The translations under genes were made by a program, and so were the position numbers. Shown piece by piece: positions 10,275 to 40,387 of a stretch of 64,000 nucleotides of DNA. This DNA is from a bacterium (GTDB taxonomy: Bacteria; Patescibacteriota; Minisyncoccia; Minisyncoccales; Minisyncoccaceae): the NCBI GenBank assembly GCA_023228085.1, contig JALOBW010000004.1:2070-66069 (forward strand), read 5' to 3'. The notes under the pieces are model-generated. The model was not told where the DNA came from. It ran no database searches and worked only from the letters and a program-made list of their open reading frames with translations. Every line of letters begins with the position of its first letter. The stretch's first letter is position 1.

Positions 10275-10278
10275 CAGT

Positions 10279-11412: not shown

Positions 11413-11425
11413 GGAGAAATATATT

Positions 11426-12454: not shown

Positions 12455-12455
12455 A

Positions 12456-24097: not shown

Positions 24098-25411
24098 ATG
24101 CCATCAGAACCTAATTTAAACATACTAGACATTAAAGTTGGAACTAGGGAAATTAGAAATGCCATCAGGAATCTAATCCTTAGTAAATCTGAAATTACTT
24201 CAGATATGTTCACTTCTGCCAATGGTGGTATGAAATTGCCTCACAGGTATGCACTCGGTTGGCTTCGGAAACTCGGAGACAATACTATGCTAAAGAAATC
24301 TGGCATGGTAGAGTTTTATGAGTTTAGGGGCAATGAATCACAAATCAATGCCATTGACTGGACAGATATGGCAATGTATCCACAAGTAGAGCTTACTGAC
24401 CACAGATATTACACTGGTCCAACATTTGATCAGATTACATTAAGCCCACAATGGTTTAGTGCTAAATTCATGATCACAGACCAGGATGTCAATGTGGCTA
24501 CTGAGACCGACTTAGGTGGTCTATTCCTTGAGCTCATGGCTATGAAGCTTGCCAATGAATATGAAAAATTAATGATTCATGGTAACAAGATTGGCCAGAA
24601 CACTTCTCGTGCTAAAGCATATGATGACTACGATCCTGACAAAGTAAGCATAGATCCTACCTTCATTAAAACTGACGGTATCATATCACTTGCTGTTGCG
24701 GATGGTATTCAAGTTGACTGTAGCACATGGGAAACTAAGTATTTCAATCCTGAAATATGTAAAGAAATGCTTATGGCCATTGCTGAGGAACAACAGTTCT
24801 TGCTCCAAAGCATGCAGTTCATGGTTAGCCCAAGAGCTTATGAAGACTTCTATGAACATTGTGAAAACAAAGGTGTAGATACTGCATCTTTGCAATGGGT
24901 ACTTGGCACAATGCCAATCCAATATCACAAAAAGCTGATTCATGGAGTTCCTCTTTGGGACAACAACCCAAGACAGGTCAAGAAAGCCAAAATTACATCT
25001 TCTGGTGGAACAGTGGATTTGCCTTATGTCCCAATAGTAGAGGACAGTGACAAATTTATACCTCACACAGAAGGAACATTCTACACCCCATATGTAAATG
25101 GCACAGCAGATGACTATACATTGGATCTTACAACTGGCAAAGTTACCCATACTGGAACTGACACATCTTCAATTCCATTGGATACTTTCATAAACTTTAC
25201 CTACAAAGGGCCTGGTGTTGCAGTAATGACATTCCCTGGAAACTTTAAATTTGCAGTTAACACTGATACTGTAAAAATAGAGCATGACAGAGTAGTCAAT
25301 GATGCCACTGACCTATATGTAAGTCATACATCTGGTGACATTGCAATGTGGAGAGCTGATGCTTGTGTATGGACAAATGTTCAAAACAAAACACCTACGC
25401 TGGCTAGCTAA
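24098..25411 (+). CDS. major capsid protein (HK97-like fold)
   Basis: GGGGAGG RBS; position; PTFDQITLSP, LANEYEKLMIHGN, FIKTDGIISLA patterns. Confidence 0.8.
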   Translation: MPSEPNLNILDIKVGTREIRNAIRNLILSKSEITSDMFTSANGGMKLPHRYALGWLRKLGDNTMLKKSGMVEFYEFRGNESQINAIDWTDMAMYPQVELTDHRYYTGPTFDQITLSPQWFSAKFMITDQDVNVATETDLGGLFLELMAMKLANEYEKLMIHGNKIGQNTSRAKAYDDYDPDKVSIDPTFIKTDGIISLAVADGIQVDCSTWETKYFNPEICKEMLMAIAEEQQFLLQSMQFMVSPRAYEDFYEHCENKGVDTASLQWVLGTMPIQYHKKLIHGVPLWDNNPRQVKKAKITSSGGTVDLPYVPIVEDSDKFIPHTEGTFYTPYVNGTADDYTLDLTTGKVTHTGTDTSSIPLDTFINFTYKGPGVAVMTFPGNFKFAVNTDTVKIEHDRVVNDATDLYVSHTSGDIAMWRADACVWTNVQNKTPTLAS

Positions 25412-26078: not shown

Positions 26079-26789
26079 ATGGGATTATATATAGTCTCTT
26101 CTGACATAGTAAATAAGCAAGGGCTTCCTGACAGTGAAGTTGAGAAGATCATTGATACAATAGAAGAGCAGGTTCATTCCTATTGTATGGATATATTCTG
26201 TACTTGGGATGACATATATGATGAAAGCTATACATTTAAGTTCAGAGGAGAAGGCAATCCTGTTATTTTCATTGACAGATTAATACCCTATAACTTGATT
26301 TCCATAGCAAATATAGAATACATAGACCCAGAACTAGGGCTAGACACAATAGACGATGAATATGAGTTCAATGAATATAGTATTACTAATCTAGACAATG
26401 CTTGGAAATCAAGTCGTAGGATGAATTATCAAGTAACATGCAATATAGGAAATGCAGAAACATCAATACTTGGAAACACTAACCCAAAGTATAAGCCAGA
26501 AAGCTTGCTATACTGTCTGAAAGCACTAGTAACTAGGGAAATAGACATAATGTATAGCGATGGTGCAGTATATGCTGGGACTACAAGTTTAGATGTTGAT
26601 AAAATAAAAGAGTATGAGTTTAACTCAGAAACGGCATTTGATTATTCATATAAACGCAATAAATCCATAATAATAGATCCAAGCAATCCAAACCCAACTG
26701 GAATACCAACTATAGATTCAATATTGAGAAGTTTACAGAGACAAGATATCAAAATATGGACAGCCAGACAAAACTGGAGTAAATACTAA
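26079..26789 (+). CDS. head-tail connector/adaptor (probable)
   Basis: Position; TIEEQVHSYC...FRGEG..., YSYKR, TGIPTIDSIL patterns. Confidence 0.55.
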   Translation: MGLYIVSSDIVNKQGLPDSEVEKIIDTIEEQVHSYCMDIFCTWDDIYDESYTFKFRGEGNPVIFIDRLIPYNLISIANIEYIDPELGLDTIDDEYEFNEYSITNLDNAWKSSRRMNYQVTCNIGNAETSILGNTNPKYKPESLLYCLKALVTREIDIMYSDGAVYAGTTSLDVDKIKEYEFNSETAFDYSYKRNKSIIIDPSNPNPTGIPTIDSILRSLQRQDIKIWTARQNWSKY

Positions 26790-27139
26790 TGCCTTCTTCC
26801 ATAATGACTCCACATCAAGTAGATGTTGAGAGGCAAACTCCTGCTCAAGATGATACTGGTGGATATGATGATTCTACCTATAGCACAATATATGAAAATC
26901 TTAAATGTAGAATAGCATCAGTAGAGTCTCTATATGGAAATAAAAACATTGGATATGCCAAAGAAATGTTTAGTGGAATGCCAGAAGTAACTGCTGTAAT
27001 GATGGCATCAACTAAATTGGATAACATGGATAGAATCACATTTGGTGATACTATATATGAAATACGTAAAATATACCCAGTATATGCATTTAGAAAACTA
27101 CATCACTATACTTATGGGTTAAAGCAAATCACTATATAA
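26789..27139 (+). CDS. head closure protein (SPP1 gp16-like)
   Basis: VDVERQT..QDDTGG...LKCRI...DRITFGDTIYEIR. Confidence 0.7.
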   Translation: MPSSIMTPHQVDVERQTPAQDDTGGYDDSTYSTIYENLKCRIASVESLYGNKNIGYAKEMFSGMPEVTAVMMASTKLDNMDRITFGDTIYEIRKIYPVYAFRKLHHYTYGLKQITI

Positions 27140-27161: not shown

Positions 27162-28844
27162 ATGGGAAATTGCTCTATTAAGATCAATCAATCAGATAAC
27201 CCACTATCCTATATTAAATTCAATCTCAAAGAAATGAAAAGGAAGTTAAGGATCTGTCTATTGCAACCAGGTGGCTGTGGGGATTCTATAATGGTAGAGC
27301 CCATTGCAAGGTGGATTAAAGACAATAATGATAATACTGAAATAGCATTTGCTGCCAGGCCTGAATACATGAAGGTAATGATGAATAATCCATATTTTAA
27401 GGTTATTGATGGATTTGAAATATTAAAGGCAATTAAAAATCATGATAGTGGGATATTGAACCAATTTGACATTCCTCCCATTAACTTTGCTACTGCAATA
27501 AATACTAATCCAGATGCAGAGAAAATGCACTACATAGATGCTCATTATAAATATATAGACCAAGATATTGACACTAACTCCATACCAATAGAATACAAAA
27601 TTCCAAGATTGTTTATAAAAGAAGATAGGGCTAAGTTAGCAAAAAGCTGGTTTAATGTTATGGAATTAAGAGATAGAATAACTGTTGGAATACAAATAAG
27701 ATCTAGTAGTTATGTAAGGAATTGGAATAAAAATAAAGAGCTTGCATTACTATTAGGTAGCAATGGATACAATGTAATATTATTCTCAAACAACCCTTAT
27801 GACTTTTTTAGTGGTCCAAACATATATACTCCGCCATTCAAATATACTCACCAGCAAATGGAGAATGTTGTAGCATTTGCAAATGAATGTGACATATTGG
27901 TTAGCCCAGACAGTAGCTTTGTTCAAATAGCACAGGCATTAAATAAGAAATTAGTATGCATGTATGGACCATTCCCAAGCGAATATAGAGTTAAATACTA
28001 TGATAATGTAATAGCCATAGAGAACCATGATCATGAAAAATTTAAATGTATGCCATGTTATCTTCATCATCATACGTGCCCATTTGGATCAACTTCTCCA
28101 TGTATGGACTCTATAAGTGTTGATGATGTATTTGATGCAATAGTTAAAAAGTCGCATGAATATGGCATGGATACAGGTAAACTAGTAAACACTGAATTCT
28201 ATAGTGAAAAAATATACAGTTCAATTAAATGTATAGATGGCAACAATTTTGCAATAATGTCTCCAAATTATGGAGTATGGACTTGTGAGAATGCTCAAGA
28301 AATAGCAAATAGAATTAAAACCCATACACAGGGTGCTTATCCAAATATGTCACAGTTCTGCATAGCAGACATGGGATGCGGAGATGGAGCGCTTATGGAT
28401 GCAATATCTAAATGCTCAAGAGATAAATTTTATCCGCTTCTGTATGGGATAGATATTATGGATTCTGCAAAACATCAAGCTAGGGTCAACCATCATGATA
28501 TATGGAGCAATATTAAGAAGGCAGACATTAGAGAAAGATTTATTTGGTCCAATGGCAAATTAAACTGTATTATCTACAATGAAATACTTGAGCACATGGA
28601 TATATATGGTGCAATAGAAGCAATTAAAACTGGCAAATCATACTTGCATAACAAGGGAATAATGTATATATTATATAGTATGGAACATGCAAAGTTTGAC
28701 ATGCATAAAGTTTTTGGAATGATAGGAATGGAGATTGTATCCAATAGCATGATAGACAATAAAACAGAACTAATAGCAAGGAAAATACAGAATGAGACAA
28801 ATACGAGCAATATCCAACAAAGTAATAGCAAAGAGAACCAATAG
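27162..28844 (+). CDS. GT9-family (GT-B) glycosyltransferase fused to a class I SAM methyltransferase
   Basis: GGCGDSIM, VSPDSSFVQIAQAL...MYGP, CMPC..C...CMDSI; C-terminal IADMGCGDG. Confidence 0.8.
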   Translation: MGNCSIKINQSDNPLSYIKFNLKEMKRKLRICLLQPGGCGDSIMVEPIARWIKDNNDNTEIAFAARPEYMKVMMNNPYFKVIDGFEILKAIKNHDSGILNQFDIPPINFATAINTNPDAEKMHYIDAHYKYIDQDIDTNSIPIEYKIPRLFIKEDRAKLAKSWFNVMELRDRITVGIQIRSSSYVRNWNKNKELALLLGSNGYNVILFSNNPYDFFSGPNIYTPPFKYTHQQMENVVAFANECDILVSPDSSFVQIAQALNKKLVCMYGPFPSEYRVKYYDNVIAIENHDHEKFKCMPCYLHHHTCPFGSTSPCMDSISVDDVFDAIVKKSHEYGMDTGKLVNTEFYSEKIYSSIKCIDGNNFAIMSPNYGVWTCENAQEIANRIKTHTQGAYPNMSQFCIADMGCGDGALMDAISKCSRDKFYPLLYGIDIMDSAKHQARVNHHDIWSNIKKADIRERFIWSNGKLNCIIYNEILEHMDIYGAIEAIKTGKSYLHNKGIMYILYSMEHAKFDMHKVFGMIGMEIVSNSMIDNKTELIARKIQNETNTSNIQQSNSKENQ

Positions 28845-29067
28845 ACTCATTGAAGAGCATCATGGCATAGCAATACCACAGACTGCAAAAGTTATTTCTG
28901 TAGTGTGTGAGGTATTGTCTGTTGGGCCAAGGGTTAGAAGTGGCATAAAAGTTGGAGACATGATATTTAAAGATCAGTATTTAAGACCAGATACTGAATT
29001 TGAAGTTGATGGTCAAAAGCTACTTTTATTAAATGAAGATGAAATTCATTGTAAGGTAGAAGAATAA
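28792..29067 (+). CDS. groES: GroES/Cpn10-like co-chaperonin
   Basis: IRAISNKVIAK...GIAIP...EVLSVGP...IKVGD...EFEVDGQKLLLLNEDEI. Confidence 0.8.
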   Translation: MRQIRAISNKVIAKRTNRLIEEHHGIAIPQTAKVISVVCEVLSVGPRVRSGIKVGDMIFKDQYLRPDTEFEVDGQKLLLLNEDEIHCKVEE

Positions 29068-29640
29068 TTGACTGTATTATCTAGACAGGGTCTTCCTCAA
29101 ACCACTTCTTTAAATGTAAAGAAATGGAAAGTTAAAAGCAGTGGAATGACTAAAGCTACTGCTAAATTTAAGGGTGCCATAAACGTAGATTTAGAGTGGA
29201 AATTAAAATTGGATGCTGACAAGTTTTGTAGGGAATATATGGCAAAGTGTATAGAAGAGGGCATGGGTAAAATAGGGAAAGACATAAAAGATAGAGCTTA
29301 CATGCAGGCCGGTGGAGAAAGAATATACATTGGTGGAATGACAAAATGGCAAAGAATAAAAGCATATTATGCAGCAACTAAACTTTCTCCTCCTGAAAGA
29401 GTTAGAATTGAAACTGGGCTATACAAAAATAACTTCACCCATAAAATTCAATCTACTCATGAAAACTTAAAAACATCACTAACTATTGGCAATCAATACA
29501 AACATGCAGCCTATGTAGAATCAAAAACAGGCAATTTAACTGCTGCAATGCTTTCATTGTGGGTATCCATTTTATACCAAATAGGACTATCTCTAGGCAA
29601 AGCAATGACAACATGGGAATCAAGTAGTAATACTCAATAA
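29068..29640 (+). CDS. neck/tail completion protein (HK97 gp10-like, probable)
   Basis: RIETGLYKNNF...TIGNQYKHAAYVE pattern. Confidence 0.5.
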   Translation: MTVLSRQGLPQTTSLNVKKWKVKSSGMTKATAKFKGAINVDLEWKLKLDADKFCREYMAKCIEEGMGKIGKDIKDRAYMQAGGERIYIGGMTKWQRIKAYYAATKLSPPERVRIETGLYKNNFTHKIQSTHENLKTSLTIGNQYKHAAYVESKTGNLTAAMLSLWVSILYQIGLSLGKAMTTWESSSNTQ

Positions 29641-29655
29641 ATATAAGGAACCAAT

Positions 29656-30033
29656 ATGATGGTAAAACCAATAAAATACAATCCAAATGAATTAGCAATA
29701 TTTATAGACATCAATGATAAAAGTGACTACAGGGGAGCTGCCAACTTTGCTAGGGCAAAATATTGTATAAACATGCACCCAATGTCTTTTAGAATATTCT
29801 ATATAATGGATGAACTGTCTAATGGTAAAATAAAAGAAATTAACTCCTATTTGTTAAATATGAATGGCAAATTTAGAGGGTCGCTAATAAGATCTTGTGA
29901 AGTTGAAGAAATAGCCAATAAGTATAGGAATAAAGTTGCCATAAGTGGATCTGCAATTATAGGCAAGACATCCAATGACAATGATTTACCAAAGATCATA
30001 GGACCATCTGATGAAAAAAAGATCACAGGATAA
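29656..30033 (+). CDS. hypothetical protein
   Basis: AAGGA RBS; 125 aa. Confidence 0.65.
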   Translation: MMVKPIKYNPNELAIFIDINDKSDYRGAANFARAKYCINMHPMSFRIFYIMDELSNGKIKEINSYLLNMNGKFRGSLIRSCEVEEIANKYRNKVAISGSAIIGKTSNDNDLPKIIGPSDEKKITG

Positions 30034-30059
30034 ATCTAGAAGATATCACTACAGAAACA

Positions 30060-32153
30060 ATGAATTTTGGCAAGAAAAATAAAGCAGAAGTTACTATTTC
30101 TATTTTGTGTTTTAATAGGCTAAATGCAACCAAAGATTGTGTTAATAGCATATTGCAATCTAAAACCAAATATGACTACAACATTATCCTTACTGACAAT
30201 GGAAGCTATGACAAGGCAAATAAAGACTTTCTAATTGAAACTTACAAGAATAATGAGAATATTGCACTACTATTGCACAATGGCAACATGGGATTTATAG
30301 ATGGCCACAGAAAGGCATTGGAAATAGCAACTGGAAAATACTTTCTATTACTAAACAATGATATCATTGTATATGATGGATGGTTAGATGATTTAGTAGA
30401 TAAAATTAAAAAAGATAAAAATGCAAAAGCAGTAGGAGTACACCCATGCAAGCTTGATAATAATGGCGTTGGAGGCATAGTATCTAAAACAGACTTTGAC
30501 TATGTGGAAGGTGACTGCCTAATGGTAGAGACTGAATTTATAAAAGAATTTGGTCTATTTTCTCCAAAACTATACTTTATATATTATGAAGATTCAGATT
30601 TATGTTTAAGGCTAAAAGAACATAACTATGGAGTAGCTTATTGTGATACCAACAAAATAGTCCACATTCCAATGGTCAAAGCAATAAATACAAGTAAGGA
30701 TAAAACAAGGCATGTTCATGACAACCAAGAATATTTCAAAAAGAGATGGGGATACTATCTAAAACATAAAACATTTAAAAATGCTAAATATATTATCAAG
30801 AGAAAACATGCGATAGGAGACACCTTATATACTCTACCTATTGCAAAGACATTAAAGGAATTAAATCCTTCTTGTAATATACTACTAGAGACAGATTGCC
30901 CTCAAATAGCAAAAATAATTCCCTATATAGATTCAACAATAGACACTGGGAGCATTAGCTATGATGGATATAATGTATTAGACTGTGATTTTGCACATGA
31001 AAATAACCCAATGACTCCTATATATGAAGCCTTTTGGAAAAGCATTGGCATAAAAGTAAATAGCATAACTCCAGATATCCCAATAAACAATGATGTTAAT
31101 GCTAAATTAAAAGATAAATACAACTTCCCATACATAATAGCTCACTGGGGTCCATCATTTGGATGGGATGGAAGGAATGTTGACAAGGAAACTATTGACT
31201 GTATAAGTAAGCTAATTAAAAATGAAGGTCTAAAGATAATAGAAGTTGGAACTTCAAAGAATTCTAAATACTCTGACTATGTATTGTTGAATCAAGAGTG
31301 GGATGTTGATATAGAACTTGTAAGGAATAGTGCTGGGTTTATAGGAATAGATAGTAGTATTATGCATATTGCTCAAGCACTAGGAACAAAGGGATCTGCC
31401 ATATTTGGATGTGTAGATCCAAAAACAAGGCTAACTGAAAATAGTTCTATTATTGAATATACGGCAGATGCAGTATGTAAATTCTGTTGGAATAAATCTG
31501 AACCACCAAAGACATTTATACAATGCAGAAGGGGAGACAATATTTGCATTAAAAATATAAATCCAATCCAATTTGCAGGAATAGCAGTAAAACATATAAC
31601 CGGCAAAAAGATGAGCAAATTGTTTATAAACAAAAATAATATTAAACTTGAGAACTTAAAAGTAGATTGGGGATGTGGGTTTAGAAAGGAAAAAGGGTAT
31701 GTTGGAATCGACATACAAGATTATGACAATGTTGATATTGTTTGTGATGTTATGGACGTTGATAAACAGAAGCTTCCCAAAGGGTCATGCATAGAAATAA
31801 GGTCATTGCACTTTATAGAGCATCATACATATAAAAATGTAATAAAAATACTAAAGGAATGGAAAGAATTGTTGGCTAATGAAGGAGTTGTTAGAATATT
31901 CTTCCCAGACATGTCTATGCTATCAAGAAAAACCAATGATGCAAGAATGCTAGACTTTTCATTAGGCCAATGGCAAAATCAATATGATGTCCATAAGAGT
32001 TGGTGGACACAGGATTTAATGGTTAAATTTCTTGAAGAAGTAGGATTTAAAAATGTAAAAGCAATACCATATACTGGGCCTTTGCATACAGTTACTAATA
32101 TGGTAAATAGAAAAGAAATATGCTGCACTTCGGGAGTGGAAGGAGAAAAATAA
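30060..32153 (+). CDS. three-domain protein: GT2 glycosyltransferase + GT9 glycosyltransferase + SAM methyltransferase
   Basis: GT2: LTDNGSYD, LLNND, YEDSDLCLR. GT9: AIGDTL, FIGIDSSIMHIAQALG. MTase: VDWGCG, HFIEH. Confidence 0.85.
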   Translation: MNFGKKNKAEVTISILCFNRLNATKDCVNSILQSKTKYDYNIILTDNGSYDKANKDFLIETYKNNENIALLLHNGNMGFIDGHRKALEIATGKYFLLLNNDIIVYDGWLDDLVDKIKKDKNAKAVGVHPCKLDNNGVGGIVSKTDFDYVEGDCLMVETEFIKEFGLFSPKLYFIYYEDSDLCLRLKEHNYGVAYCDTNKIVHIPMVKAINTSKDKTRHVHDNQEYFKKRWGYYLKHKTFKNAKYIIKRKHAIGDTLYTLPIAKTLKELNPSCNILLETDCPQIAKIIPYIDSTIDTGSISYDGYNVLDCDFAHENNPMTPIYEAFWKSIGIKVNSITPDIPINNDVNAKLKDKYNFPYIIAHWGPSFGWDGRNVDKETIDCISKLIKNEGLKIIEVGTSKNSKYSDYVLLNQEWDVDIELVRNSAGFIGIDSSIMHIAQALGTKGSAIFGCVDPKTRLTENSSIIEYTADAVCKFCWNKSEPPKTFIQCRRGDNICIKNINPIQFAGIAVKHITGKKMSKLFINKNNIKLENLKVDWGCGFRKEKGYVGIDIQDYDNVDIVCDVMDVDKQKLPKGSCIEIRSLHFIEHHTYKNVIKILKEWKELLANEGVVRIFFPDMSMLSRKTNDARMLDFSLGQWQNQYDVHKSWWTQDLMVKFLEEVGFKNVKAIPYTGPLHTVTNMVNRKEICCTSGVEGEK

Positions 32154-32848
32154 TGACAAGTATTGATTTTTATCAACCAGCCTATTCCCCAAATGGGGAG
32201 TTCTTAAAGAAAGTTTGCCCATTCTTCTACCATTTTTGGTGTGATTCTTTGTGGCACAATGCAGTTCCAAAAGATACTGCTGGGCTATCTTATTTAGACA
32301 TAGGATGTGCTGATGGACTATATCTACTTAGGTTTATGCAAAGAGGTGGCAAATCAGCCTGCGGAGTTGATCCAAAAATTAAGGCTAGTGGATTTGAATA
32401 TTTAAAAGAACTATATAATCCCATTCAATATATTGGAATAGAAGGATGTGTTAATAAGGAAGGAAATATAATACCAGATGTTGAACCAGCAAATATAGTA
32501 AATTGCATGAACATGATTGAATACACTGACGATCCATATAAATGCTTAGAAACCCTGTTAAACAAAACAATAGATAGGCTAATAGTAACTGTAGATATGG
32601 GGCCAAAGACAGGATATTCAAATAAACTTAATCAATGGTTATTTAATAAAAATGAATTTGTAAGCAAAATACCTTATCCATTTATAGTGTGGGAAGAGAA
32701 TGATTTAACATATCCTCAAATAGCATGTGTAGTTGTTAATAAAACAAATGCAATACAGCCTATGCCCCCTGGGGCAATACATTGTTCAACGGATATTACT
32801 GAAACTCAAAAGTATTACCTTGAATCAATCGAAGTAGGAAATAAATAA
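32153..32848 (+). CDS. class I SAM-dependent methyltransferase
   Basis: YLDIGCADG, GVD, NMIEYTDDP; start at ATG 32153 overlapping the upstream stop. Confidence 0.75.
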   Translation: MTSIDFYQPAYSPNGEFLKKVCPFFYHFWCDSLWHNAVPKDTAGLSYLDIGCADGLYLLRFMQRGGKSACGVDPKIKASGFEYLKELYNPIQYIGIEGCVNKEGNIIPDVEPANIVNCMNMIEYTDDPYKCLETLLNKTIDRLIVTVDMGPKTGYSNKLNQWLFNKNEFVSKIPYPFIVWEENDLTYPQIACVVVNKTNAIQPMPPGAIHCSTDITETQKYYLESIEVGNK

Positions 32849-33615
32849 TGCTACCAGAACAATGCCAATTTATAGTTCTTGCTGGAGTAAATAAATGTGG
32901 AACTTCATCTTTGGCTTATGCACTAAAAAAACATCCAAATATATATCTAGCAAATGGTAAAGAGCCAGCATTCTTTGTAGAGGATAGGTTTTTTGATTCA
33001 CAGGGCAAGGTCAATGAAGTTGACTTAAGTAATTACCATTTCTATGTATATAAGTTCTTTGAGAGTGTAACACATTACCTTGATGCTTCTACGATATATT
33101 CTGGATTCCCAAAATGTATGAAGAGGATAATGGAATATAGATCAGATGCTAAAATAGTTATTGTATTTAGAAATCCAATAAATAGAGCATATTCTGCATG
33201 GTGGCATTTTGCAAGTGACGGGAAATCAGAAAAACATTCATTCCATGATGCAATAATTAACGAAGCAAAGTACTGTATGGAAGCAAAAGACTTAGGATAT
33301 TCCCTCAGATCTTATGTATCAAGAGGATTTTATTCCAATACCATAAGGATGATTTGGAGATACTTTGATAAATCACAAGTATTGCCAATAAAATTTGAGA
33401 GCATGGTTGCAAACAAACAAGAAACTTTAAATAGTATATTTAACTTTATAGGAGTAGAGCAGGTAGAATTAGAATTTGGGCATAAGTTGAAAAGTGCCTA
33501 TCCTTGCCCGATGAGCGATGAAGACAAGGAATATTTAAAATATGTTTATGAATACTCAATAAAAGATTTAGAAAGAATGTTGAGTTGGGACTGTAGTGAT
33601 TGGCTATCAACTTAA
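32848..33615 (+). CDS. PAPS-dependent sulfotransferase
   Basis: 5'-PSB loop GVNKCGTSSL, KEPAFF, 3'-PB FRNPINRAYSAW, SRGFY. Confidence 0.9.
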   Translation: MLPEQCQFIVLAGVNKCGTSSLAYALKKHPNIYLANGKEPAFFVEDRFFDSQGKVNEVDLSNYHFYVYKFFESVTHYLDASTIYSGFPKCMKRIMEYRSDAKIVIVFRNPINRAYSAWWHFASDGKSEKHSFHDAIINEAKYCMEAKDLGYSLRSYVSRGFYSNTIRMIWRYFDKSQVLPIKFESMVANKQETLNSIFNFIGVEQVELEFGHKLKSAYPCPMSDEDKEYLKYVYEYSIKDLERMLSWDCSDWLST

Positions 33616-33630
33616 TATCAAGAGAGGTCA

Positions 33631-34269
33631 TTGAAGATGATAACGGAAAAGCTATTAAGATGTTCTATTAAATCAGCAGAATTAGAGCAATCAAGAATCA
33701 ACGAAAAAGTAATGGGAATAGGAGGATTTACTTCTAACAAAGTAAGGCATTTTTTGAACAATATCTGTGGTGTACTACCATTCCACTATCTAGAAGTTGG
33801 AACCCATCATGGCTCAACAATAATAGCAGCTTCATTTAGGAATCATGGTAAATATACAGGAATAGATGATTTTTCACAGTTTCAGGGAAGGGAGAAGGTC
33901 CTCTTTGATAACATAAATCAATTTAATGGACTATGCAATATTAAATTTATCAATGGGAACTCTTTTAGTAAAGAAGTTATTGACCAAATAGACAATAATA
34001 GCATAGAAGTATATTTCTATGATGGAGACCATTCCTATGAATCGCAATATAAAGCACTTGTTGATTATATTGGTAAGATGAATAAAAAGTTCTGCTTTAT
34101 AGTTGATGACTGGAATTGGGAAGGCCCAAGAAATGGAACCAATGATGCTATTAGCTTCCTTGAATTAAAAACAGTATATAAAGAAGAGTTATTTACCCCA
34201 AATTATGAAAATGGAAGGGCAGATAGCTGGTGGAACGGACTGGGAATATTTATATTGGAGAGACAATAG
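33631..34269 (+). CDS. class I SAM methyltransferase (Methyltransf_24-like)
   Basis: YLEVGTHHGST, FYDGDHSYE, IVDDWNW. Confidence 0.85.
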   Translation: MKMITEKLLRCSIKSAELEQSRINEKVMGIGGFTSNKVRHFLNNICGVLPFHYLEVGTHHGSTIIAASFRNHGKYTGIDDFSQFQGREKVLFDNINQFNGLCNIKFINGNSFSKEVIDQIDNNSIEVYFYDGDHSYESQYKALVDYIGKMNKKFCFIVDDWNWEGPRNGTNDAISFLELKTVYKEELFTPNYENGRADSWWNGLGIFILERQ

Positions 34270-34271
34270 AC

Positions 34272-35069
34272 ATGGCCAAACTAGGAGGATCAATATTTAC
34301 ACATAACTGCATTAAGTATGATTATTGCTTTAAAGAATCTATTAGAAGCCTATGTGGAGTTTGCGATGAAGTTGTATGCTTAGACGCTGAAAGTGATGAT
34401 GGAACACTTGAAGAGCTTAAAGTATTACGAGGTGAACTGCCAAATCTAAAAATAATACAAGATAAATGGGAACAGCACATAGAAGGAAGCCCTGGATATG
34501 ACAGGCTTTGCATATTAGCAAACAAGGCAAGGGAGGAATTAAGCACTGAATGGCATTTCATGCTTCAGGCAGATGAAGTTATACATGAAAGTTCTCATGA
34601 TCATATAAGAGAATTTATTGATAGCCCAAATATTAGTTCAGTTGTTTGCTTGAGATATAATATATATGGAGACTTTGATCATTATGTTAAATTAACTAGT
34701 GCAAAGAAGCCATGTGGAGACTTTATAGTCAGATTAGCAAGAAAGTCATGCCGAGTAGTTGGAGACGCAGAGTCTATAATGATGCATCCTGTAGTATATA
34801 GAGATGAACCGCAGTCAGCTATAAAAATATTTCACTATGGAATGGTAAGACATCCATATATTTTTGTTGACAAAGTAATAGATATGCAAAAATGGTTTTT
34901 TGGAGTTCCAGATTATAGATTTGTTCAATACAAATCAGATGGAAATAGGTGGAATCCATTAGACATCATACCAAAAGAAGAACTTAATGCCCTTAAAATT
35001 AACCATCCAAGCATAGTTTCTAATTGGATAGAAAAGAGAAGATCTTTTTATAACATAAATATGGTATAA
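34272..35069 (+). CDS. GT2-family glycosyltransferase
   Basis: CDEVVCLDAESDDGT, FMLQADE, IFHYG; GGAG RBS before ATG 34272. Confidence 0.8.
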   Translation: MAKLGGSIFTHNCIKYDYCFKESIRSLCGVCDEVVCLDAESDDGTLEELKVLRGELPNLKIIQDKWEQHIEGSPGYDRLCILANKAREELSTEWHFMLQADEVIHESSHDHIREFIDSPNISSVVCLRYNIYGDFDHYVKLTSAKKPCGDFIVRLARKSCRVVGDAESIMMHPVVYRDEPQSAIKIFHYGMVRHPYIFVDKVIDMQKWFFGVPDYRFVQYKSDGNRWNPLDIIPKEELNALKINHPSIVSNWIEKRRSFYNINMV

Positions 35070-35121: not shown

Positions 35122-35271
35122 ATGCCGTGGAAAAGCAAAAAACAAATGGCCTGGGGAAATTCAAAATCCGGGAGAGAATCTATGGGAGAAAAGAAAGTAA
35201 GTGAATTTAATAAGGCTACTAAGGGCAAGAAATTGCCTAAAAAAATTAAAAAAACAAAGAAAGGCAAATAA
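35122..35271 (+). CDS. small Lys-rich protein (49 aa), not in the ORF track
   Basis: AAGGA RBS; MPWKSKKQMAWGNSKSGRESMGEKKVSEFNKATKGKKLPKKIKKTKKGK*. Confidence 0.75.
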   Translation: MPWKSKKQMAWGNSKSGRESMGEKKVSEFNKATKGKKLPKKIKKTKKGK

Positions 35272-35272
35272 T

Positions 35273-35623
35273 ATGAAAAAGGTATTTTTAGCATCAATGC
35301 TTATAATGTCAATTTGTGGAATAGCATATTCATCAGTTTTCCTTGAATGCAATCCAATACCTCAAAGCCAAAATGATCCAAGCAATCTAGTGGATCATTA
35401 CATTATAACCATAGATGGGTTAAGCAACATTGTATTGCCAATAAAGGATGAAACTGCTTGCACTGCAAAGTTTAAATATGAGTTAACCGGGATATCACTT
35501 GGAGATCATTCTATTTTCATTAAGACTGTTAATTATTTTGGGGTTGAAAGCGACCCTTTCGAGTTCTCTTGTCCTGTAGAGAAACCGGACTCTCCTTCTG
35601 GCGTAAAGATAGTGGCAGAATAA
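35273..35623 (+). CDS. secreted small beta-sandwich (FN3/Ig-like) protein
   Basis: Signal peptide MKKVFLASMLIMSICGIAYS; beta-strand pattern; C-terminal KPDSPSGVKI. Confidence 0.65.
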   Translation: MKKVFLASMLIMSICGIAYSSVFLECNPIPQSQNDPSNLVDHYIITIDGLSNIVLPIKDETACTAKFKYELTGISLGDHSIFIKTVNYFGVESDPFEFSCPVEKPDSPSGVKIVAE

Positions 35624-35647
35624 AAGAGATAAGGGAATTTGAATATT

Positions 35648-35770
35648 ATGTTGTTAATGAATAAAACTTTAAAATATACCAAAGATTGTGGATTCGTTTT
35701 AATTGGAGTTCTCTGGTATTTTTTAAGAAATATTTCAGGTAATAATTACTTTGGTTGGAATGGAGATTGA
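35648..35770 (+). CDS. possible 40-aa membrane peptide
   Basis: MLLMNKTLKYTKDCGFVLIGVLWYFLRNISGNNYFGWNGD*; fills the gap; weak RBS. Confidence 0.35.
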   Translation: MLLMNKTLKYTKDCGFVLIGVLWYFLRNISGNNYFGWNGD

Positions 35771-35779
35771 GAGGATAGC

Positions 35780-38700
35780 ATGAACAGGCTTTCACAGACC
35801 AATATCGTGATACTTTTCTCCGTTATTGCTATCCTCTCAATTTGCTCTATTGGATATCCAGAAGATTACTGGGTATATGTCACTACTACAGATGATTATT
35901 CCTCTTCTGAAGGGTCTAACTCTCAAAAAGGTGACATGGTTGATGCTATACCTGCAAGCATCTATACTCCGACAACCGAAGAAAAGAAATTGTGGGCTAT
36001 TTTTAAAGTGTCTGGAACGACAAAAGAAGAACTTGAATTTTACAAACAGCCTGGCTATAAGTCAGTTGACACTTCAAAAGGATATAGCTGGTACAGAAAA
36101 CACAAACTCGACATAAAATCTCTTGGATTAGAAACAAAGGGAGTTAGAGAAGGAACTTTTAATTGGTCGTACGTAAAATCCAAAATATCTGAAAAAACCA
36201 ATACTGATTTAGCACAATGGAGAGACAATCATAATTATCAAGTAAAAATAGATTACTGGATGTCATATCTTAAGGTATTTGAAACAGTTAAAGCATGGGC
36301 TACTTCTACAGTAGTTAAGACTGTTAATAAAACAAGTGGTGATTACAATACTCTGACCCTTTGGGAGGATGCAACTGACAATGATTCCCTAATTACAGCA
36401 GACGAAATTAGAGTAGCCGAATGCTATGATGATTTGAATAATGGTATTTTAGACGACAGAACAGCCTTTAGTATAACTGGAACATACATAGATTCTACTC
36501 ATTACCGTGATGTCTATGCTCCTTCTGGACAGAGGCATAATGGCATAGAAGATAACTCTGCAAATCCTTCTGGTTTCTGTATTGACCCATCAACTAATGG
36601 AAGTGTAATTATAATTTATGAAAGTTATATTAGATTTCATGACATCCGTATTAAAGGCTGGGGGAATGACGGGTATGGATATACAAGTGCCATTTCGGTT
36701 CAAGAAGGAAATTATGTAAGAATTTATAACAATCTAATTTACAAGCCAAATGGTGGGAACGATAGAGGATATAGGGGAATTTATTTTGCAGATGTACCAA
36801 ATTATCTTTACATTTACAACAATGCTATTATCAATGTATCAGGTAAAAGTGGATATCATGCTTATGGAATTGGATCTTATAATGATAACAATGTTTACAT
36901 AATTGGTAATTCAATTTATAACATTACAGGGTCAAGCGGATCCAGTGCCTATGGCATCCTTTCTGGAAGCACGAAGCATGTAGTATCGAACAATATAGTA
37001 ATTACTTGCACCACAGCTTGTTTTTCTGGAACTTGTGCAGCTTCCTCAAATAACAATATGTCATCTGATACAAGTTCACCTGGAGCTGCTGGAATCGACA
37101 ATGAAACAACTGGTGAATTTACTTCTGTAACTGCTGACTCAGTTGATGTTCACCTTGCTGCCGATGCAAATGCTATTGAAGCTGGATTAGATGCTTCTTC
37201 AACTTTAGGATGCACCGCAAGCTCAACTTGTATTGACTATGTATATAATATAAGACCACAAAGAACTAACTGGGACATGGGATGCCATGAAAAACCACCC
37301 GTTCCTACTCCAACACTAACTATAACAGCAACTGCTACAGCTACAATTACAAGAACTCCAACTTTAACAATTACAAGAACTCCAACCATTACAGTCACAG
37401 CAACAGATACCATGACTCCAACTTTGTCTGCAACTCCTACAATGACTCTTACATTGTCTAATACTCCTACAATGACTGTGACTGAAACCATTACAGCAAC
37501 TCCTTCATATACAGCAACACCTACAGCAACTTGTGTTGAACCTGATAATAGAATCAGAATTGGATTAAATGCTAATTGTGATTATGCTGGTGGATGGGAA
37601 GATACTCATGTTGATAAGCAAAATCCAAATACAAATTATGGAAATGACGAAACAATGGAAGTTCAAACTGTTGCAATGCAAAATGCAGCATATGTTCATT
37701 TCAGATTTAATACTGGAGACTTATATAACTATGTAGATATTACTTCTGCACGTCTTTGGGTTTACATTACAACAGCAAGTTCATTGTTGCCATATAGCCC
37801 AGAATTATATGCTTTAAACCAAGCATGGGTCGAATTACAAGACACCTTTAATATTTACTCAACTGGAAATTCATGGACAGGTTCTGATGGTGGGAATCAG
37901 GACAAAGGTGATTCATATGGTTCAGGGACTTGGTATGCTGGTCCCAAATGGAGAGTAATGGAATTAAATGCTGCATGTATTGCTCAATTAGAATCATCTG
38001 CTGGAACTGGTAATTCAATCGACTTTTTCCTAACAGATGAAGCTGTATTTGGCTCAAATTATACAATGGCAAGTAGTGAAAATACCGATGACTCACGAAG
38101 ACCTTATGTAGAGATTTGCTACCATACTTATATAACACCAACACAAACTTTAACTCCTACAATGACCTTAACATCTACCTTAACACAAACACCAACACTT
38201 TCAGCTACTATAACACAGACAATTACCATTACTCCAGCAACCCCAACGAATACCATGACTCCTACATTATCAAATACTCCTACTCAAACGGTTACAGCAA
38301 CCCAAACACAAACTGCCACTGTCACAGCAACTGCAACTGAAACTCCAGTTCCTACCTGTGGCTCTCATTCAAGAGCAAGATTTGGGGATGGCTCATTCTG
38401 TGAATTTGTGGACTGGGCAGATACTTATGTTGATTTCTCACACCCTACTGCAAACTATGGAACTGATTCTAATTTATGGATAGACCCAGATGGAGCAAAT
38501 ACAAGATATACGCACATCAGGTCTAATATTAGAGCAATCTATCCAGCAACAATAAGTTCAGCAAGGTTATATTTTTATGTATCAGACACTAACTCACAGG
38601 AAATGAATTTAATAACTAAAATATTGAGTTCTGATAATTCAAAGCAATTCAGTGAAATACAAGACACATGGAGACTATATGAAACTGGTCATTCATGGGA

Positions 38701-39169
38701 GAACGAAGATGGTGGAATGAGTGATGCTGGTGATACCATATCAAGCACATGGTGGGGCAATGTAACTGGATGGCAATTTATAGAATTCAATGTAACCGGA
38801 ATTACTTATTTAACTACTCAAATGAATGCCAATACCCCATGCCAATTTATTATCTACTCCTCTTCTGGTAAAAGGCAACTTGTTAGTTCTGATGGAACTG
38901 ATTTAAATAGGCCATACTTAGAAATTTGCTATGACCCAATGCCAACTCCAACTGCTACAGCTACAGCTACAGCTACACAAACTGCCACTGCTACACAAAC
39001 TGCCACACAAACAAGTACATTAACTCCAACTAATACACAAACACCAACACTAACAATAACTAGGACCCCAACCGTATCTCCAACTGAATGTGATGGGTAT
39101 ATAATAGAAGAAAAGCCAGGGTCTGGAATAATTCATTCATTACAAAAGAGAAGTAGTATGAAGCAATAA
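35780..39169 (+). CDS. large exported adhesin-like protein: signal peptide, right-handed beta-helix, three Thr-rich linkers, two DNRLRE-like domains
   Basis: N-terminal hydrophobic signal; repeated IYNN/IYNI/GI beta-helix motifs; twin DT(H/Y)VD..PxxNYG...ARL(W/Y)...SS....RPY(V/L)EICY domains. Confidence 0.7.
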   Translation: MNRLSQTNIVILFSVIAILSICSIGYPEDYWVYVTTTDDYSSSEGSNSQKGDMVDAIPASIYTPTTEEKKLWAIFKVSGTTKEELEFYKQPGYKSVDTSKGYSWYRKHKLDIKSLGLETKGVREGTFNWSYVKSKISEKTNTDLAQWRDNHNYQVKIDYWMSYLKVFETVKAWATSTVVKTVNKTSGDYNTLTLWEDATDNDSLITADEIRVAECYDDLNNGILDDRTAFSITGTYIDSTHYRDVYAPSGQRHNGIEDNSANPSGFCIDPSTNGSVIIIYESYIRFHDIRIKGWGNDGYGYTSAISVQEGNYVRIYNNLIYKPNGGNDRGYRGIYFADVPNYLYIYNNAIINVSGKSGYHAYGIGSYNDNNVYIIGNSIYNITGSSGSSAYGILSGSTKHVVSNNIVITCTTACFSGTCAASSNNNMSSDTSSPGAAGIDNETTGEFTSVTADSVDVHLAADANAIEAGLDASSTLGCTASSTCIDYVYNIRPQRTNWDMGCHEKPPVPTPTLTITATATATITRTPTLTITRTPTITVTATDTMTPTLSATPTMTLTLSNTPTMTVTETITATPSYTATPTATCVEPDNRIRIGLNANCDYAGGWEDTHVDKQNPNTNYGNDETMEVQTVAMQNAAYVHFRFNTGDLYNYVDITSARLWVYITTASSLLPYSPELYALNQAWVELQDTFNIYSTGNSWTGSDGGNQDKGDSYGSGTWYAGPKWRVMELNAACIAQLESSAGTGNSIDFFLTDEAVFGSNYTMASSENTDDSRRPYVEICYHTYITPTQTLTPTMTLTSTLTQTPTLSATITQTITITPATPTNTMTPTLSNTPTQTVTATQTQTATVTATATETPVPTCGSHSRARFGDGSFCEFVDWADTYVDFSHPTANYGTDSNLWIDPDGANTRYTHIRSNIRAIYPATISSARLYFYVSDTNSQEMNLITKILSSDNSKQFSEIQDTWRLYETGHSWENEDGGMSDAGDTISSTWWGNVTGWQFIEFNVTGITYLTTQMNANTPCQFIIYSSSGKRQLVSSDGTDLNRPYLEICYDPMPTPTATATATATQTATATQTATQTSTLTPTNTQTPTLTITRTPTVSPTECDGYIIEEKPGSGIIHSLQKRSSMKQ
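37304..37531 (+). repeat. Thr-rich low-complexity coding repeat 1 (TPTLT/TATPT)
   Basis: About 76 codons of TxT repeats. Confidence 0.9.
38126..38356 (+). repeat. Thr-rich low-complexity coding repeat 2
   Basis: TPTQTLTPTMTLT... repeats between the two globular domains. Confidence 0.9.
38942..39085 (+). repeat. Thr-rich low-complexity coding repeat 3
   Basis: PTPTATATATATQTAT... near the C-terminus. Confidence 0.9.
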
Positions 39170-39170
39170 A

Positions 39171-39199
39171 TTGATTTAAAGTATAATTTAACTTATAAT
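39171..39199 (+). promoter_or_regulatory. sigma70-like promoter for the lysis/tail genes
   Basis: TTGATT-17 bp-TATAAT in an intergenic gap. Confidence 0.7.
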
Positions 39200-39227
39200 A
39201 TAAACATGAGATATACGGAGATGTACC

Positions 39228-39878: not shown

Positions 39879-39889
39879 GGAGACACTAA

Positions 39890-40378: not shown

Positions 40379-40387
40379 GGCAATAAT

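Follow-up and report, generated by a model that had tools for sequence, protein, structure and literature searches.

An uncultured landfill phage, whose genome of ~68.8 kb looks complete, carries six glycan enzyme genes on the forward strand between a head-completion gene and the tail genes, and in our estimation it is about an even call that they encode a late-expressed cytoplasmic pathway through which the phage glycosylates a virion protein, adding methyl caps and, in this phage alone, sulfate groups. The acceptor most likely belongs to the head, the capsid subunit being the first candidate. To date, comparable glycan decoration of virions has been demonstrated solely in mycobacteriophages and giant algal viruses, whose enzymes are unrelated to these.

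A glycan enzyme cluster within the morphogenesis operon

The analysed DNA is a stretch of 64,000 nucleotides, hereafter the window, and the genes given below with coordinates lie on its + strand. The nine enzyme domains that a preliminary description had assigned to the six genes, namely two GT9, two GT2, four SAM-methyltransferase and one sulfotransferase domain, were all recovered in place by Pfam and PHROGs searches, one of the GT9 domains with the help of a fold model. Intergenic gaps inside the cluster range from -53 to +26 nt, and promoter-like or terminator-like sites are in no excess over shuffled sequence, in agreement with the tight coupling on one strand described before. The surroundings of the enzyme genes comprise TerL, portal, XkdF-type protease, capsid protein, head-completion protein, GroES, and tape measure genes, and, judged from the sequence, the cluster sits inside a true morphogenesis operon. 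For four of the enzyme genes, the likely true start lies downstream of the one first called (27234 vs. 27162, 32153 vs. 32120, 33637 vs. 33631, and 34272 vs. 34230).

Interleaving with head-closure, GroES, and neck genes had also been proposed, of which the GroES part was confirmed. The gene for a GroES-like co-chaperonin (28792-29067; Pfam Cpn10, 1e-10; PHROG 3188, 3e-12) is indeed interspersed with the enzyme genes and overlaps the 3' end of the first of them by 53 nt; the same overlapping pair occurs in L037, the nearest related locus. The head-completion or head-tail adaptor gene (26789-27139; PHROG 793, 7e-6; Pfam Phage_HCP, 3e-4, under the cut-off), in contrast, is the upstream border of the cluster, with a homologue in the matching position of L037. 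The neck label is tentative, as the two further interspersed genes match no family in Pfam, PHROGs, or further profile searches. One encodes a conserved 190-aa protein (29068-29640) with an L037 homologue in the equivalent slot (5e-25), possibly a neck or tail-completion protein; the other encodes a 125-aa protein (29656-30033) whose sole resemblance, weak but collinear (E 0.02), is to the stretch that extends the GT2-GT9 protein of L037 at its N-terminus.

Glycosyltransferases, methyltransferases, and sulfotransferase

The first enzyme (27162-28844) is a GT9 domain (Glyco_transf_9, 31.3 bits, cut-off 22) fused to a class I SAM methyltransferase (Methyltransf_23, 27.3 bits, cut-off 27); its sequence matches in the PDB are WaaF (1PSW) and 3TOV, and it shares 32% identity with the homologue P0122. 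The second, of 697 aa (30060-32153), combines a GT2 domain of GT-A fold (Glycos_transf_2, 62.2 bits), a GT9 domain of GT-B fold, and a class I methyltransferase. Its Glyco_transf_9 score of 21.9 bits is marginally below the cut-off of 22, and the assignment was confirmed by an AlphaFold2 model of the protein (pLDDT 76), in which Foldseek matched the GT9 domain best to 3TOV, WaaF (1PSW), and WaaC among PDB structures, with TibC significant at rank 46; the top viral structural match of the model is an RfaF-annotated protein from an uncultured phage. The C-terminal methyltransferase scores weakly (PHROG methyltransferase, 5e-5; Pfam, 0.06); it has VDWGCG as motif I, and its counterpart in the homologue P0002, with which it aligns, scores well. 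A stand-alone class I SAM methyltransferase of 231 aa follows (32153-32848; Methyltransf_23, 34.8 bits), its start overlapping the preceding stop by 1 nt, and a second one (33637-34269) is of the Methyltransf_24 (CmcI/TylF-like) type (Pfam, 30.7 bits; PHROG 1458, 9e-27), with homologues (2e-40) that adjoin the last enzyme of the cluster, F3, in loci L142 and L151. Hydropathy revealed hydrophobic segments in none of the six enzymes, all of which are thus predicted to be soluble.

The fusion family shares the GT-B fold of the heptosyltransferases WaaC/WaaF and TibC/AAH, and keeps the N-terminal GD and C-terminal (D)S..H motifs of GT9. It differs from them in that GT9 is fused to GT2 and methyltransferase domains and encoded among phage structural genes, and it scores far under the cut-offs of the WaaC, WaaF, and WaaQ equivalog models. 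To our knowledge, characterised GT9 enzymes all act on LPS, except for the TibC/AAH group; this precedent, and a fold nearer to 3TOV, WaaF, and WaaC than to TibC, count against protein glycosylation.

The sulfotransferase (32848-33615; Sulfotransfer_1, 53.8 bits) is a PAPS-type enzyme of the carbohydrate (heparan-sulfate NST/3-OST-like) kind, with sequence matches in the PDB to 3RNL (9e-18) and to NST and 3-OST (1e-6). Along with the Sulfotransfer_1 fold family, it shares with these enzymes KCGTSSL as the 5'-phosphosulfate loop and RNPINRAYS as the 3'-phosphate motif, and its KEPAFF aligns with the KE.HFF segment of 3-OST, which presumably holds the catalytic Glu. Unlike them, it is a soluble phage-encoded protein of 255 aa. 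Its closest relatives share at most 34% identity and are all metagenomic. The enzyme is missing from every related module among the loci compared, and sulfation would be a peculiarity of this phage.

F3 (34272-35069) is a GT2-like glycosyltransferase of a ~255-aa family and reaches only 19.2 bits with Glycos_transf_2 (cut-off 23.3). In a 12-member family alignment, SDDG, DADEV (containing the DXD motif), and HYG are invariant, and the alignment matches GT2 structures. Among solved proteins, the family profile comes closest to Listeria GmaR, in the domain that acts as flagellin O-GlcNAc transferase (1.1e-6, a modest match), followed by 7MSK (1.4e-3), which we take to be ThuS, and SunS (0.08); the NCBIfam model SunS matches F3 at 6.5e-5. 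With E<=1e-10 as the limit, the relatives of F3 number 322 cluster representatives; ten close relatives were checked, all of them unnamed or called 'hypothetical protein'. A single-sequence structure model of F3 reached a pLDDT of only 35. GmaR is a cytoplasmic enzyme that attaches the first sugar directly to flagellin (PMC9638930). SunS likewise places the first sugar straight onto a polypeptide in the cytoplasm, and the DXD and HYG motifs are common to GmaR, SunS/ThuS, and F3 in the alignment. Neither the TPR and anti-repressor domains of GmaR nor the substrate-binding domains at the C-terminus of SunS are present in F3, whose identity to these proteins is low. We propose F3 as a candidate protein-priming enzyme.

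Conservation of the module among other phages

The expectation that the position of the cluster is conserved was borne out by a synteny survey. L037 keeps the order of head-completion, GT9-methyltransferase, GroES, 190-aa homologue, and GT2-GT9 genes at 28-43% protein identity, and the GT2-GT9 fusion, F3, and methyltransferases recur together in ~30 other viral contigs (GC 33-64%), in every case among genes for packaging, heads, adaptors, or tails. Across the 54 distinct related loci, the fusion is present in 28, F3 in 23, and both in 17, usually abutting; a stand-alone methyltransferase accompanies 17 of the 28 fusions. The neighbour is TerL in L012 (PHROG 2) and, by similarity to the L012 protein, in 7 further loci, an intein-carrying TerL together with portal in L002 and L003, a head-tail connector in the P0004 contig, and tail genes in L135-L140. 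A T4 gp23-like capsid gene stands directly upstream of the module in 4 contigs, and a capsid and a head-tail adaptor gene flank the enzyme pair in L038. The exact slot varies between lineages, and mobile accessory genes (morons) behave likewise, which counts against the proposed virion role. The full fusion was seen in only ~4 of the best 80 matches among 185,579 species genomes, 1 of those contigs being plainly phage, which speaks for a phage-specific module. Among 50,697 phage records, tblastn returned GT2-only matches, and the fusion was seen in no cultured phage, a further point against the virion reading.

A proposed pathway for virion protein glycosylation

In the whole ~68.8 kb genome, Pfam assignments revealed no flippase, polymerase, priming phosphoglycosyltransferase, or oligosaccharyltransferase, and no sugar-nucleotide, PAPS, or integrase genes. 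Because the enzymes are soluble, lipid-carrier machinery was not found, and F3 is closest to GmaR and SunS/ThuS, a protein acceptor is the best-supported target, in line with the earlier suggestion of a phage-made glycan on a virion protein. F3 would prime the acceptor by linking a sugar to one of its Ser/Thr (or Cys) side chains, and the GT2-GT9-methyltransferase and GT9-methyltransferase proteins would lengthen the chain with host nucleotide sugars, the GT9 domains possibly using a heptose donor. The four methyltransferase domains would then O-methylate the sugars, and in this phage alone the sulfotransferase would add sulfate from host PAPS. Domain content, operon structure, enzyme solubility, conserved neighbourhoods, and relationships in sequence and fold are observed, whereas every step of this scheme, from the acceptor and the sugars to where methyl and sulfate groups go, is inferred. 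The candidate acceptor, the major capsid protein (24098-25411; PHROG 1623 virion structural protein, 2.6e-9), has Thr as its commonest residue (9.6%) and ends in ...NVQNKTPTLAS. Module-adjacent gp23-like capsid proteins carry Ser/Thr-rich C-terminal tails, e.g., ...NNGLATVTLTSS; such C-termini are not general, being absent from the L038 capsid protein and the F9 family.

Alternative targets

The enzymes may instead act in the cytoplasm on an exported Thr-rich protein of 1129 aa (35780-39169), and perhaps on further exported products, glycosylating them ahead of Sec export to yield a secreted or cell-bound glycoprotein. TibC/AAH heptosylate the adhesins TibA and AIDA-I, which are beta-helical exported proteins, by such a pre-export route. 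The Thr-rich protein has an N-terminal signal/anchor, a beta-helix-like region, three long TPT-rich linkers such as typically carry O-glycosylation sites, and two carbohydrate-binding CBM96/DNRLRE modules, and it contains 9 TPT[LM][ST] motifs compared with 1 in all other window proteins. Its gene lies ~700 nt downstream of the cluster on the same strand, in a block of five genes (35273-40654) whose products of 116, 1129, 216, 162, and 88 aa each begin with a hydrophobic signal/anchor (hydropathy maxima 1.6 to 2.9 at residues 3-9). Furthermore, the GT9 fold of TibC is a significant match, and the protein, like the sulfotransferase, is unique to this phage. Nevertheless, we deem this target unlikely: a gap of 130-200 nt and two small genes separate the enzymes from the Thr-rich gene, and the GT9 domain is nearer to LPS-type GT9 structures than to TibC in Foldseek. 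Above all, no relative of the Thr-rich protein occurs in any related locus; a protein restricted to this one phage cannot be the target that the module has in common and leaves the conserved module unexplained. The earlier idea of a glycan on this neighbour was thus not sustained, and the protein is at best an additional candidate acceptor that this phage alone possesses.

Another target could be a host envelope glycoconjugate, such as the LPS inner core or the precursor of a capsular or S-layer glycan; remodelling it from the cytoplasmic side of the membrane during infection would mask receptors and thereby spare progeny from loss on cell debris or exclude competing phages. LPS heptosyltransferases make up most of the characterised GT9 enzymes, the closest sequence and fold matches (WaaF, WaaC, 3TOV) and the RfaF-annotated viral match point the same way, and phage glycosyltransferases that alter O-antigen are well known, according to a paper that cites reviews of them. 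We nonetheless find it improbable, as the enzyme genes are predicted to be co-transcribed with late head and tail genes, the set includes neither a membrane-spanning enzyme nor a flippase, the conserved F3 resembles protein and peptide glycosyltransferases, and the module spans phages of 33% to 64% GC, some of them on contigs binned with Bacillota, which are not expected to have LPS. Integrase or other lysogeny genes were not found in the complete genome, and therefore lysogenic conversion does not apply; the block of superinfection via the host surface suggested previously is accordingly unlikely.

That the enzymes hypermodify phage DNA, protecting it from restriction by means of a methylated or sulfated glycan, is very improbable. 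Phage glycosyltransferases do attach diverse sugars, including Kdo and heptose-sized ones, to DNA (bioRxiv 10.1101/2023.12.21.572611), glycosyltransferase- and sulfotransferase-based nucleotide modification is stated to have been reported in phages (PMC10829341, citing Iyer et al., 2013), and the window carries three DNA methyltransferases besides an amidoligase and amidotransferase set. In L122, moreover, recombination rather than structural genes surround a related sulfotransferase and a GT2 gene, which also counts against the virion reading. Yet the cluster is 25 kb away from DNA-metabolism genes, within the head-tail operon, its conserved neighbours elsewhere are terminase, capsid, and adaptor genes rather than base-modifying enzymes, the genome's Pfam assignments include no hydroxymethylase or TET/JBP-type dioxygenase, and the F3 motifs are unlike the R...DDD...EDY/F of DNA-acting GT-A enzymes (bioRxiv 10.1101/2023.12.21.572611).

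Comparison with known viral glycosylation systems

Virion protein glycosylation has precedents in mycobacteriophages, where phage enzymes O-glycosylate the C-termini of capsid and tail-tube proteins (Freeman et al., 2023, Cell Host Microbe 31:1216, as cited in PMC12619734). Like the phage described here, Che8 is a tailed phage that encodes several soluble glycosyltransferases (gp108-110). The preliminary description had placed these among structural genes, which is inexact: they lie at the right genome end, whereas the present cluster is inside the head-tail operon, and they show no sequence similarity to window proteins. The present set, from which glycosylation is predicted by gene content, also has GT9 domains, four methyltransferase domains, and a sulfotransferase, and the host, as far as can be told (GC 33%), is not an actinobacterium.

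An architectural parallel is found in the chlorovirus PBCV-1, where A064R, with the layout GT-GT-methyltransferase, and a separate methyltransferase, A061L, build the methylated end of the capsid glycan (PMC9614988). Here too, soluble, virus-encoded enzymes comprise one polypeptide with two GT domains and a class I SAM methyltransferase plus a separate methyltransferase, and the layout is that of the 697-aa protein of the window, with no detectable homology. PBCV-1 is, however, a eukaryotic giant virus with an N-linked capsid glycan for which no sulfation is reported (PMC9614988), and A064R combines a GT-A domain of GT34 type with a new family, as opposed to GT2 and GT9 in the phage protein.

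Phage genome and morphogenesis operon

The window derives from a landfill metagenome and represents a tailed phage genome with a GC content of ~33%, in which the + strand holds nearly all genes. The same genes are present on an ENA contig of 68,842 bp, which runs from the right end of the window into its left end, indicating that the genome of ~68.8 kb is complete and circularly permuted between the assemblies (the whole window and contig L132). No integrase was found in the precomputed Pfam assignments for all parts of the 68.8 kb genome, so the phage is probably virulent. Bacterial-type replication genes, DnaB among them, are present, and the nearest cultured-phage terminases share only 28% identity with that of the window.

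The morphogenesis operon on the + strand comprises the genes for TerL (18681-20357), the portal (20831-22495), a protein with an XkdF-type protease domain (22496-23098), a scaffold-like protein and the capsid protein (24098-25411), followed by two genes without known function and by a head-completion gene (26789-27139) directly before the enzyme cluster. Downstream of the cluster, a block of exported proteins is followed by a probable tail tube (41526-42470), the tail chaperones and the tape measure (43518-46259).

Enzyme domains of the cluster

The preliminary description had placed glycosyltransferase, methyltransferase and sulfotransferase domains in the six genes at 27162-35069, and Pfam, PHROG and NCBIfam searches gave matches, some of them weak, to all of them at the genes claimed. 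The 560-aa protein (27162-28844) carries GT9 (PF01075, 31.3 bits against a cut-off of 22) and Methyltransf_23 domains, while the 697-aa protein (30060-32153) joins GT2 and GT9 domains to a weak C-terminal methyltransferase. These are accompanied by a Methyltransf_23 protein (32120-32848, Pfam), a Sulfotransfer_1 protein (32848-33615; PF00685, 53.8 bits against a cut-off of 22), a Methyltransf_24 protein (33631-34269, Pfam), and a protein of the F3 family (34230-35069), whose match to GT2 is weak (PF00535, 19.2 bits, under the cut-off). On the basis of gene-caller starts and family alignments, four starts were moved to 27234, 32153, 33637 and 34272; with these corrections the intra-cluster gaps range from -53 to +26 nt, and no excess of promoter-like or terminator-like sites was found inside the cluster.

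In the 697-aa protein, the N-terminal GT2 domain scores above its cut-off (PF00535, 62.2 bits) and contains the invariant residues N99/D101 and E177/D178, and the GT9 domain is borderline (PF01075, 21.9 bits, cut-off 22), with scores of up to 59.9 bits in phage homologues of this GT2-GT9 fusion. An AlphaFold2 model of the protein reached a mean pLDDT of 76.4, the GT2 and GT9 parts being mostly above 80 and most of residues 240-470 lying at 75-94. Foldseek searches against the PDB returned GT-A enzymes as the best matches of the N-terminal domain, and 3TOV (2e-11), WaaF 1PSW (8e-10) and WaaC 2H1H (4e-9) for the middle domain. The borderline GT9 assignment is hence confirmed by the predicted structure, which adopts a GT-B fold nearest to solved GT9 enzymes. 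As the genome contains no detectable heptose-pathway gene, an ADP-heptose donor, if used, would have to come from the host. A cluster of Cys residues after the GT9 domain had prompted the idea of a TibC-type protein heptosyltransferase, which was dropped as a specific claim because Cys motifs of this sort are widespread among GT9 enzymes and because TibC (4RAP) ranks only 46th (1.7e-8) in the Foldseek search with the 697-aa model, behind the LPS-type 3TOV, WaaF and WaaC. GT9 sequence searches match WaaF and 3TOV only.

Three of the methyltransferase domains exceed the Pfam cut-off (27.3, 34.8 and 30.7 bits). The fourth, C-terminal in the 697-aa protein, scores weakly (PHROG 5e-5, Pfam 0.06) and is modelled with low confidence; its motif I (VDWGCG) and its alignment with a clear methyltransferase domain of the homologue P0002 are consistent with a methyltransferase, and it is the least certain of the claimed domains.

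The GroES gene embedded in this region (Cpn10 match, 1e-10) overlaps the last 53 nt of the GT9-MTase gene (28792-28844). An overlapping pair of the same kind (1955-1980, 26 nt) occurs on contig L037, which encodes the sole known relative of the GT9-MTase protein, and its recurrence there suggests an old link between a capsid-folding co-chaperonin and a glycosyltransferase. The neck identities proposed for the neighbouring 190-aa and 125-aa proteins are putative, since searches with E values as high as 5 gave neither of them a Pfam, PHROG or NCBIfam match. The last glycosyltransferase gene is followed directly by a 49-aa ORF (35122-35271) for a very Lys-rich peptide without Cys, which is unlike a glycocin precursor.

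The F3 family

F3 constitutes a discrete family of ~255-aa proteins with 322 representative clusters (50% identity, E<=1e-10), characterized by invariant SDDG, DADEV and HYG motifs. Ten close relatives that we looked up were all metagenomic and either unnamed or annotated as "hypothetical protein". Searched against the PDB, the F3 profile matched GmaR best (1.1e-6, covering profile positions 6-187 of 252), followed by 7MSK (1.4e-3) and SunS (0.08), with the best polysaccharide synthase at 0.012. The single F3 sequence, compared with NCBIfam, gave the SunS peptide S-glycosyltransferase family as its best match (6.5e-5, far below the equivalog cut-off), and a single-sequence structure model was unusable (pLDDT 35). 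The weak GT2 match is thus confirmed at the family level by the invariant DADEV motif and the matches to GT2 structures. GmaR puts GlcNAc on flagellin (PMC9638930), and all three of GmaR, 7MSK and SunS glycosylate polypeptides directly in the cytoplasm. The closest characterized relatives of F3 by profile are polypeptide glycosyltransferases, and direct transfer by F3 itself is predicted, which makes this small uncharacterized enzyme family a testable candidate for the priming step.

The sulfotransferase

The sulfotransferase is intact, with both PAPS-binding motifs (5'-PSB and 3'-PB) present: K16, G18 and T19 in KCGTSSL, and R108, P110 and R113 in RNPINRAYS, are invariant among four relatives. 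It is nearest to the bacterial enzyme 3RNL (PDB match, 9e-18) and to heparan-sulfate N- and 3-O-sulfotransferases, and thus to enzymes of the carbohydrate type. The gene is absent from every related module that was compared. A word-indexed homology search yielded 3 relatives only, and distant relatives were found on 13 other viral contigs, including those of giant viruses. One contig, L122 (IMG/VR 3300035698_017414, GC 36%), has three proteins in common with the window within 7181-13500, namely a RecA-like protein, the sulfotransferase (1e-21) and a metallophosphatase; here the sulfotransferase and a GT2 gene lie amid recombination genes and not structural genes.

Related loci and conservation of placement

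Scanning IMG/VR with single proteins (the capsid protein, the 697-aa protein) gave no match, and the related loci were retrieved by profile-based scans, which returned 31 viral loci for the fusion family and 24 for F3. Combined with other related loci and after removal of duplicates, 54 distinct loci were obtained, with GC contents from 33% to 64% and with gene labels assigned mostly by similarity to a few annotated neighbour genes. The GT2-GT9 fusion occurs in 28 of the 54 and F3 in 23; both are encoded together in 17, usually with overlapping stop and start codons, and a stand-alone methyltransferase is found in 17 of the 28 fusion loci.

The 697-aa protein has its four closest relatives on phage-like contigs. 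P0002 adjoins a portal and an intein-carrying terminase, P0004 is encoded upstream of both a GT9 gene and a head-tail connector, and P0005 is accompanied by an integrase, two methyltransferases and a GT2 gene. The intein-carrying TerL genes beside a GT2-GT9-MTase homologue are those at L002 3381-5396 and L003 3779-5794. For the GT9-MTase protein, a metagenome scan with its alignment gave no match, and the word-indexed homology search retrieved 1 relative only, on the 4.1 kb contig L037, whose gene order is that of the window (head-completion protein, GT9-MTase, overlapping GroES, 190-aa homologue, GT2-GT9) at 28-43% protein identity.

In one large group of loci, the order is TerL, a 210-aa gene, GT9, GT2-GT9, F3, Methyltransf_24, Methyltransf_11 and a ~690-aa gene. 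By its position the last of these is probably the portal, an identity for which no PHROG or PDB match was obtained. Four contigs have a T4 gp23-like capsid protein (profile against PDB, 2e-20) with GT9 and a ~910-aa fusion coming immediately after it. On contig L038, which was binned with a Brevinema genome, GT2-GT9 and GT9 genes are situated between a capsid protein (PHROG 10, 1e-50) and a head-tail adaptor (PHROG 442, 1.5e-33), and on L135-L140 the module comes after the tail genes. The placement among structural genes that had been described for the window is therefore conserved, an outcome in favour of the preliminary description, which had named a non-conserved position as a point against itself; the exact slot varies by lineage. 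A blastn search of the cluster against 50,697 cultured-phage records gave no match, and tblastn with the 697-aa protein produced six matches, all to the GT2 domain only, so that no cultured phage in these records has the fusion. The full fusion is also very rare in cellular genomes, accounting for ~4 of the best 80 matches from 185,579 species. A back-translated YGPFPSEYR pattern matched two metagenome contigs, both unrelated.

L005 (IMG/VR 3300017971_000343) encodes at 9641-13471 a 1276-aa protein with the domains GT2, GT9, GT2 and B12-binding radical SAM. Two further GT2 genes and several methyltransferases come next, making this an even larger glycan-tailoring set in another phage. Giant opposite-strand genes lie beside the glycosyltransferase module in L001 (9909-19126, called at 4189 aa) and in L008 (12696 onward, ~2,860 aa visible in the locus); the former was considered as a clue to the target and dropped, its product not being Thr-rich.

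Proposed role of the module

None of the six cluster enzymes contains a hydrophobic segment, and neither a flippase, polymerase, priming phosphoglycosyltransferase or oligosaccharyltransferase nor a sugar-nucleotide or PAPS pathway was found in the genome, so the system would have to act in the cytoplasm on host-supplied donors. We give about even chances to the reading that the cluster carries out late cytoplasmic glycosylation of a virion protein, for which we infer every chemical step: F3 would serve as the primer that attaches the first sugar, the GT2-GT9 and GT9 enzymes would lengthen the chain, the methyltransferases would cap the sugars, and in this phage the sulfotransferase would add a further decoration. 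Since most of the neighbours are packaging and head genes, the modification is most likely to be on the head. On four contigs, the gp23-like capsid proteins next to the module have Ser/Thr-rich C-terminal tails; other capsid proteins lack them, and the capsid protein of the window ends in KTPTLAS. It is conceivable, if on balance rather unlikely, that members of a widespread family of uncultured tailed phages unrelated to actinobacteriophages build their own capsid O-glycan by means of an F3 primer, GT2-GT9 extenders and methylation, and that the landfill phage sulfates this glycan. If true, a phage particle would for the first time be found to bear a sulfated glycan, which would give it a polyanionic, host-glycan-like coat.

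The Thr-rich protein encoded downstream of the cluster, which the preliminary description had named as a possible target, looks like an obvious O-glycosylation substrate that might be modified before export, as is the case for TibC and AAH substrates. This exported, beta-helix-like protein, in which no autotransporter barrel was detected, has no relatives in phage records or the PDB. Its N-terminal signal/anchor, a feature also of the four genes around it, and the lack of a counterpart in any related locus compared make it an improbable substrate of the module and, at most, an extra phage-specific target.

Remodelling of the host envelope would fit the LPS-type affinities of the GT9 domains; we consider it unlikely in view of the late-operon placement, the affinity of F3 to protein and peptide glycosyltransferases, and the fact that no lysogeny genes or membrane enzymes were found. 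Lysogenic conversion of the GtrABC type relies on a membrane flippase and transferase of temperate phages, in contrast to the present phage, in whose complete genome no integrase was found, whose six cluster enzymes have no hydrophobic segment, and whose sole link to this type is a weak PHROG GtrB-like match (4.6e-4). Sugar-modified phage DNA is known (bioRxiv 10.1101/2023.12.21.572611) and one paper cites a sulfotransferase-based nucleotide modification (PMC10829341), yet DNA hypermodification is very improbable here, as the cluster neighbours are structural head and tail genes rather than base-modifying ones and no thymidylate-synthase-like hydroxymethylase or TET/JBP dioxygenase was matched in the Pfam assignments of the genome, where many genes have no assignment and a divergent enzyme could escape.

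Comparison with known systems

Glycosylation of a virion protein by the virus's own enzymes, the reading we favour, is in principle already known, since mycobacteriophages and giant viruses build their own glycans on particle proteins. To our knowledge, phage-enzyme glycosylation of phage particles has been shown only for mycobacteriophages, and the 2023 study by Freeman on their virion glycosylation reportedly saw little sign of it elsewhere among phages. The module had been likened to glycosyltransferases encoded among the structural genes of Che8; this parallel does not hold, as the Che8 genes lie outside the structural operon, and Che8 gp108-110 gave no hit to any window protein at E<=1 (phmmer), i.e., no homology. 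The Ser/Thr-rich capsid tails beside the module are reminiscent of the mycobacteriophage capsid and tail-tube proteins, which are O-glycosylated at their C-termini according to work cited in PMC12619734. In its three-domain layout the 697-aa protein resembles chlorovirus A064R, a GT-GT-methyltransferase that completes the capsid glycan jointly with a second, separate methyltransferase (PMC9614988).

Our literature searches found no description of such a module. It is conserved in dozens of uncultured phages that differ widely in GC content, lies within their head and packaging operons, and is unrelated in sequence to the Che8 enzymes. It is both uncharacterized and widespread, and the version in the window, with its sulfotransferase, is unusually elaborate. 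If the proposed role is true, particle glycosylation would be far more widespread than thought and of independent origin. Methylated and sulfated coats could influence how stable the particles are, how they adsorb to mucus or biofilm matrices and how hosts and predators recognize them, and the enzymes could serve for making defined methylated or sulfated glycoconjugates.

Other features of the genome

A run of five genes midway through the head-tail operon (35273-40654) encodes products of 116, 1129, 216, 162 and 88 aa, each with an N-terminal hydrophobic signal/anchor that in four of the five is soon followed by Cys; two products have the motif SIC[GS]I[AG]Y in common. The 162-aa and 88-aa proteins could be holin- or spanin-like lysis proteins, and no endolysin was recognized anywhere in the genome. 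Amidoligase_2, class II glutamine amidotransferase and Amidoligase_2 genes stand in a row at 439-4540, and a third amidoligase-like gene is located in the 4.8 kb of the genome outside the window (about 14.6-16 kb in L132); gene sets of this kind have been linked in phages to peptide ligation or thymidine hypermodification. At 57900-62201, a ThyX thymidylate synthase gene lies amid three DNA methyltransferase genes, of the MT-A70 type, the N6/N4 type and a second N6/N4 type on the minus strand. Genes for an Mre11-like phosphoesterase, an RNA ligase (PHA02142 OB domain) and an SbcC-like ATPase follow one another at 10279-14288.
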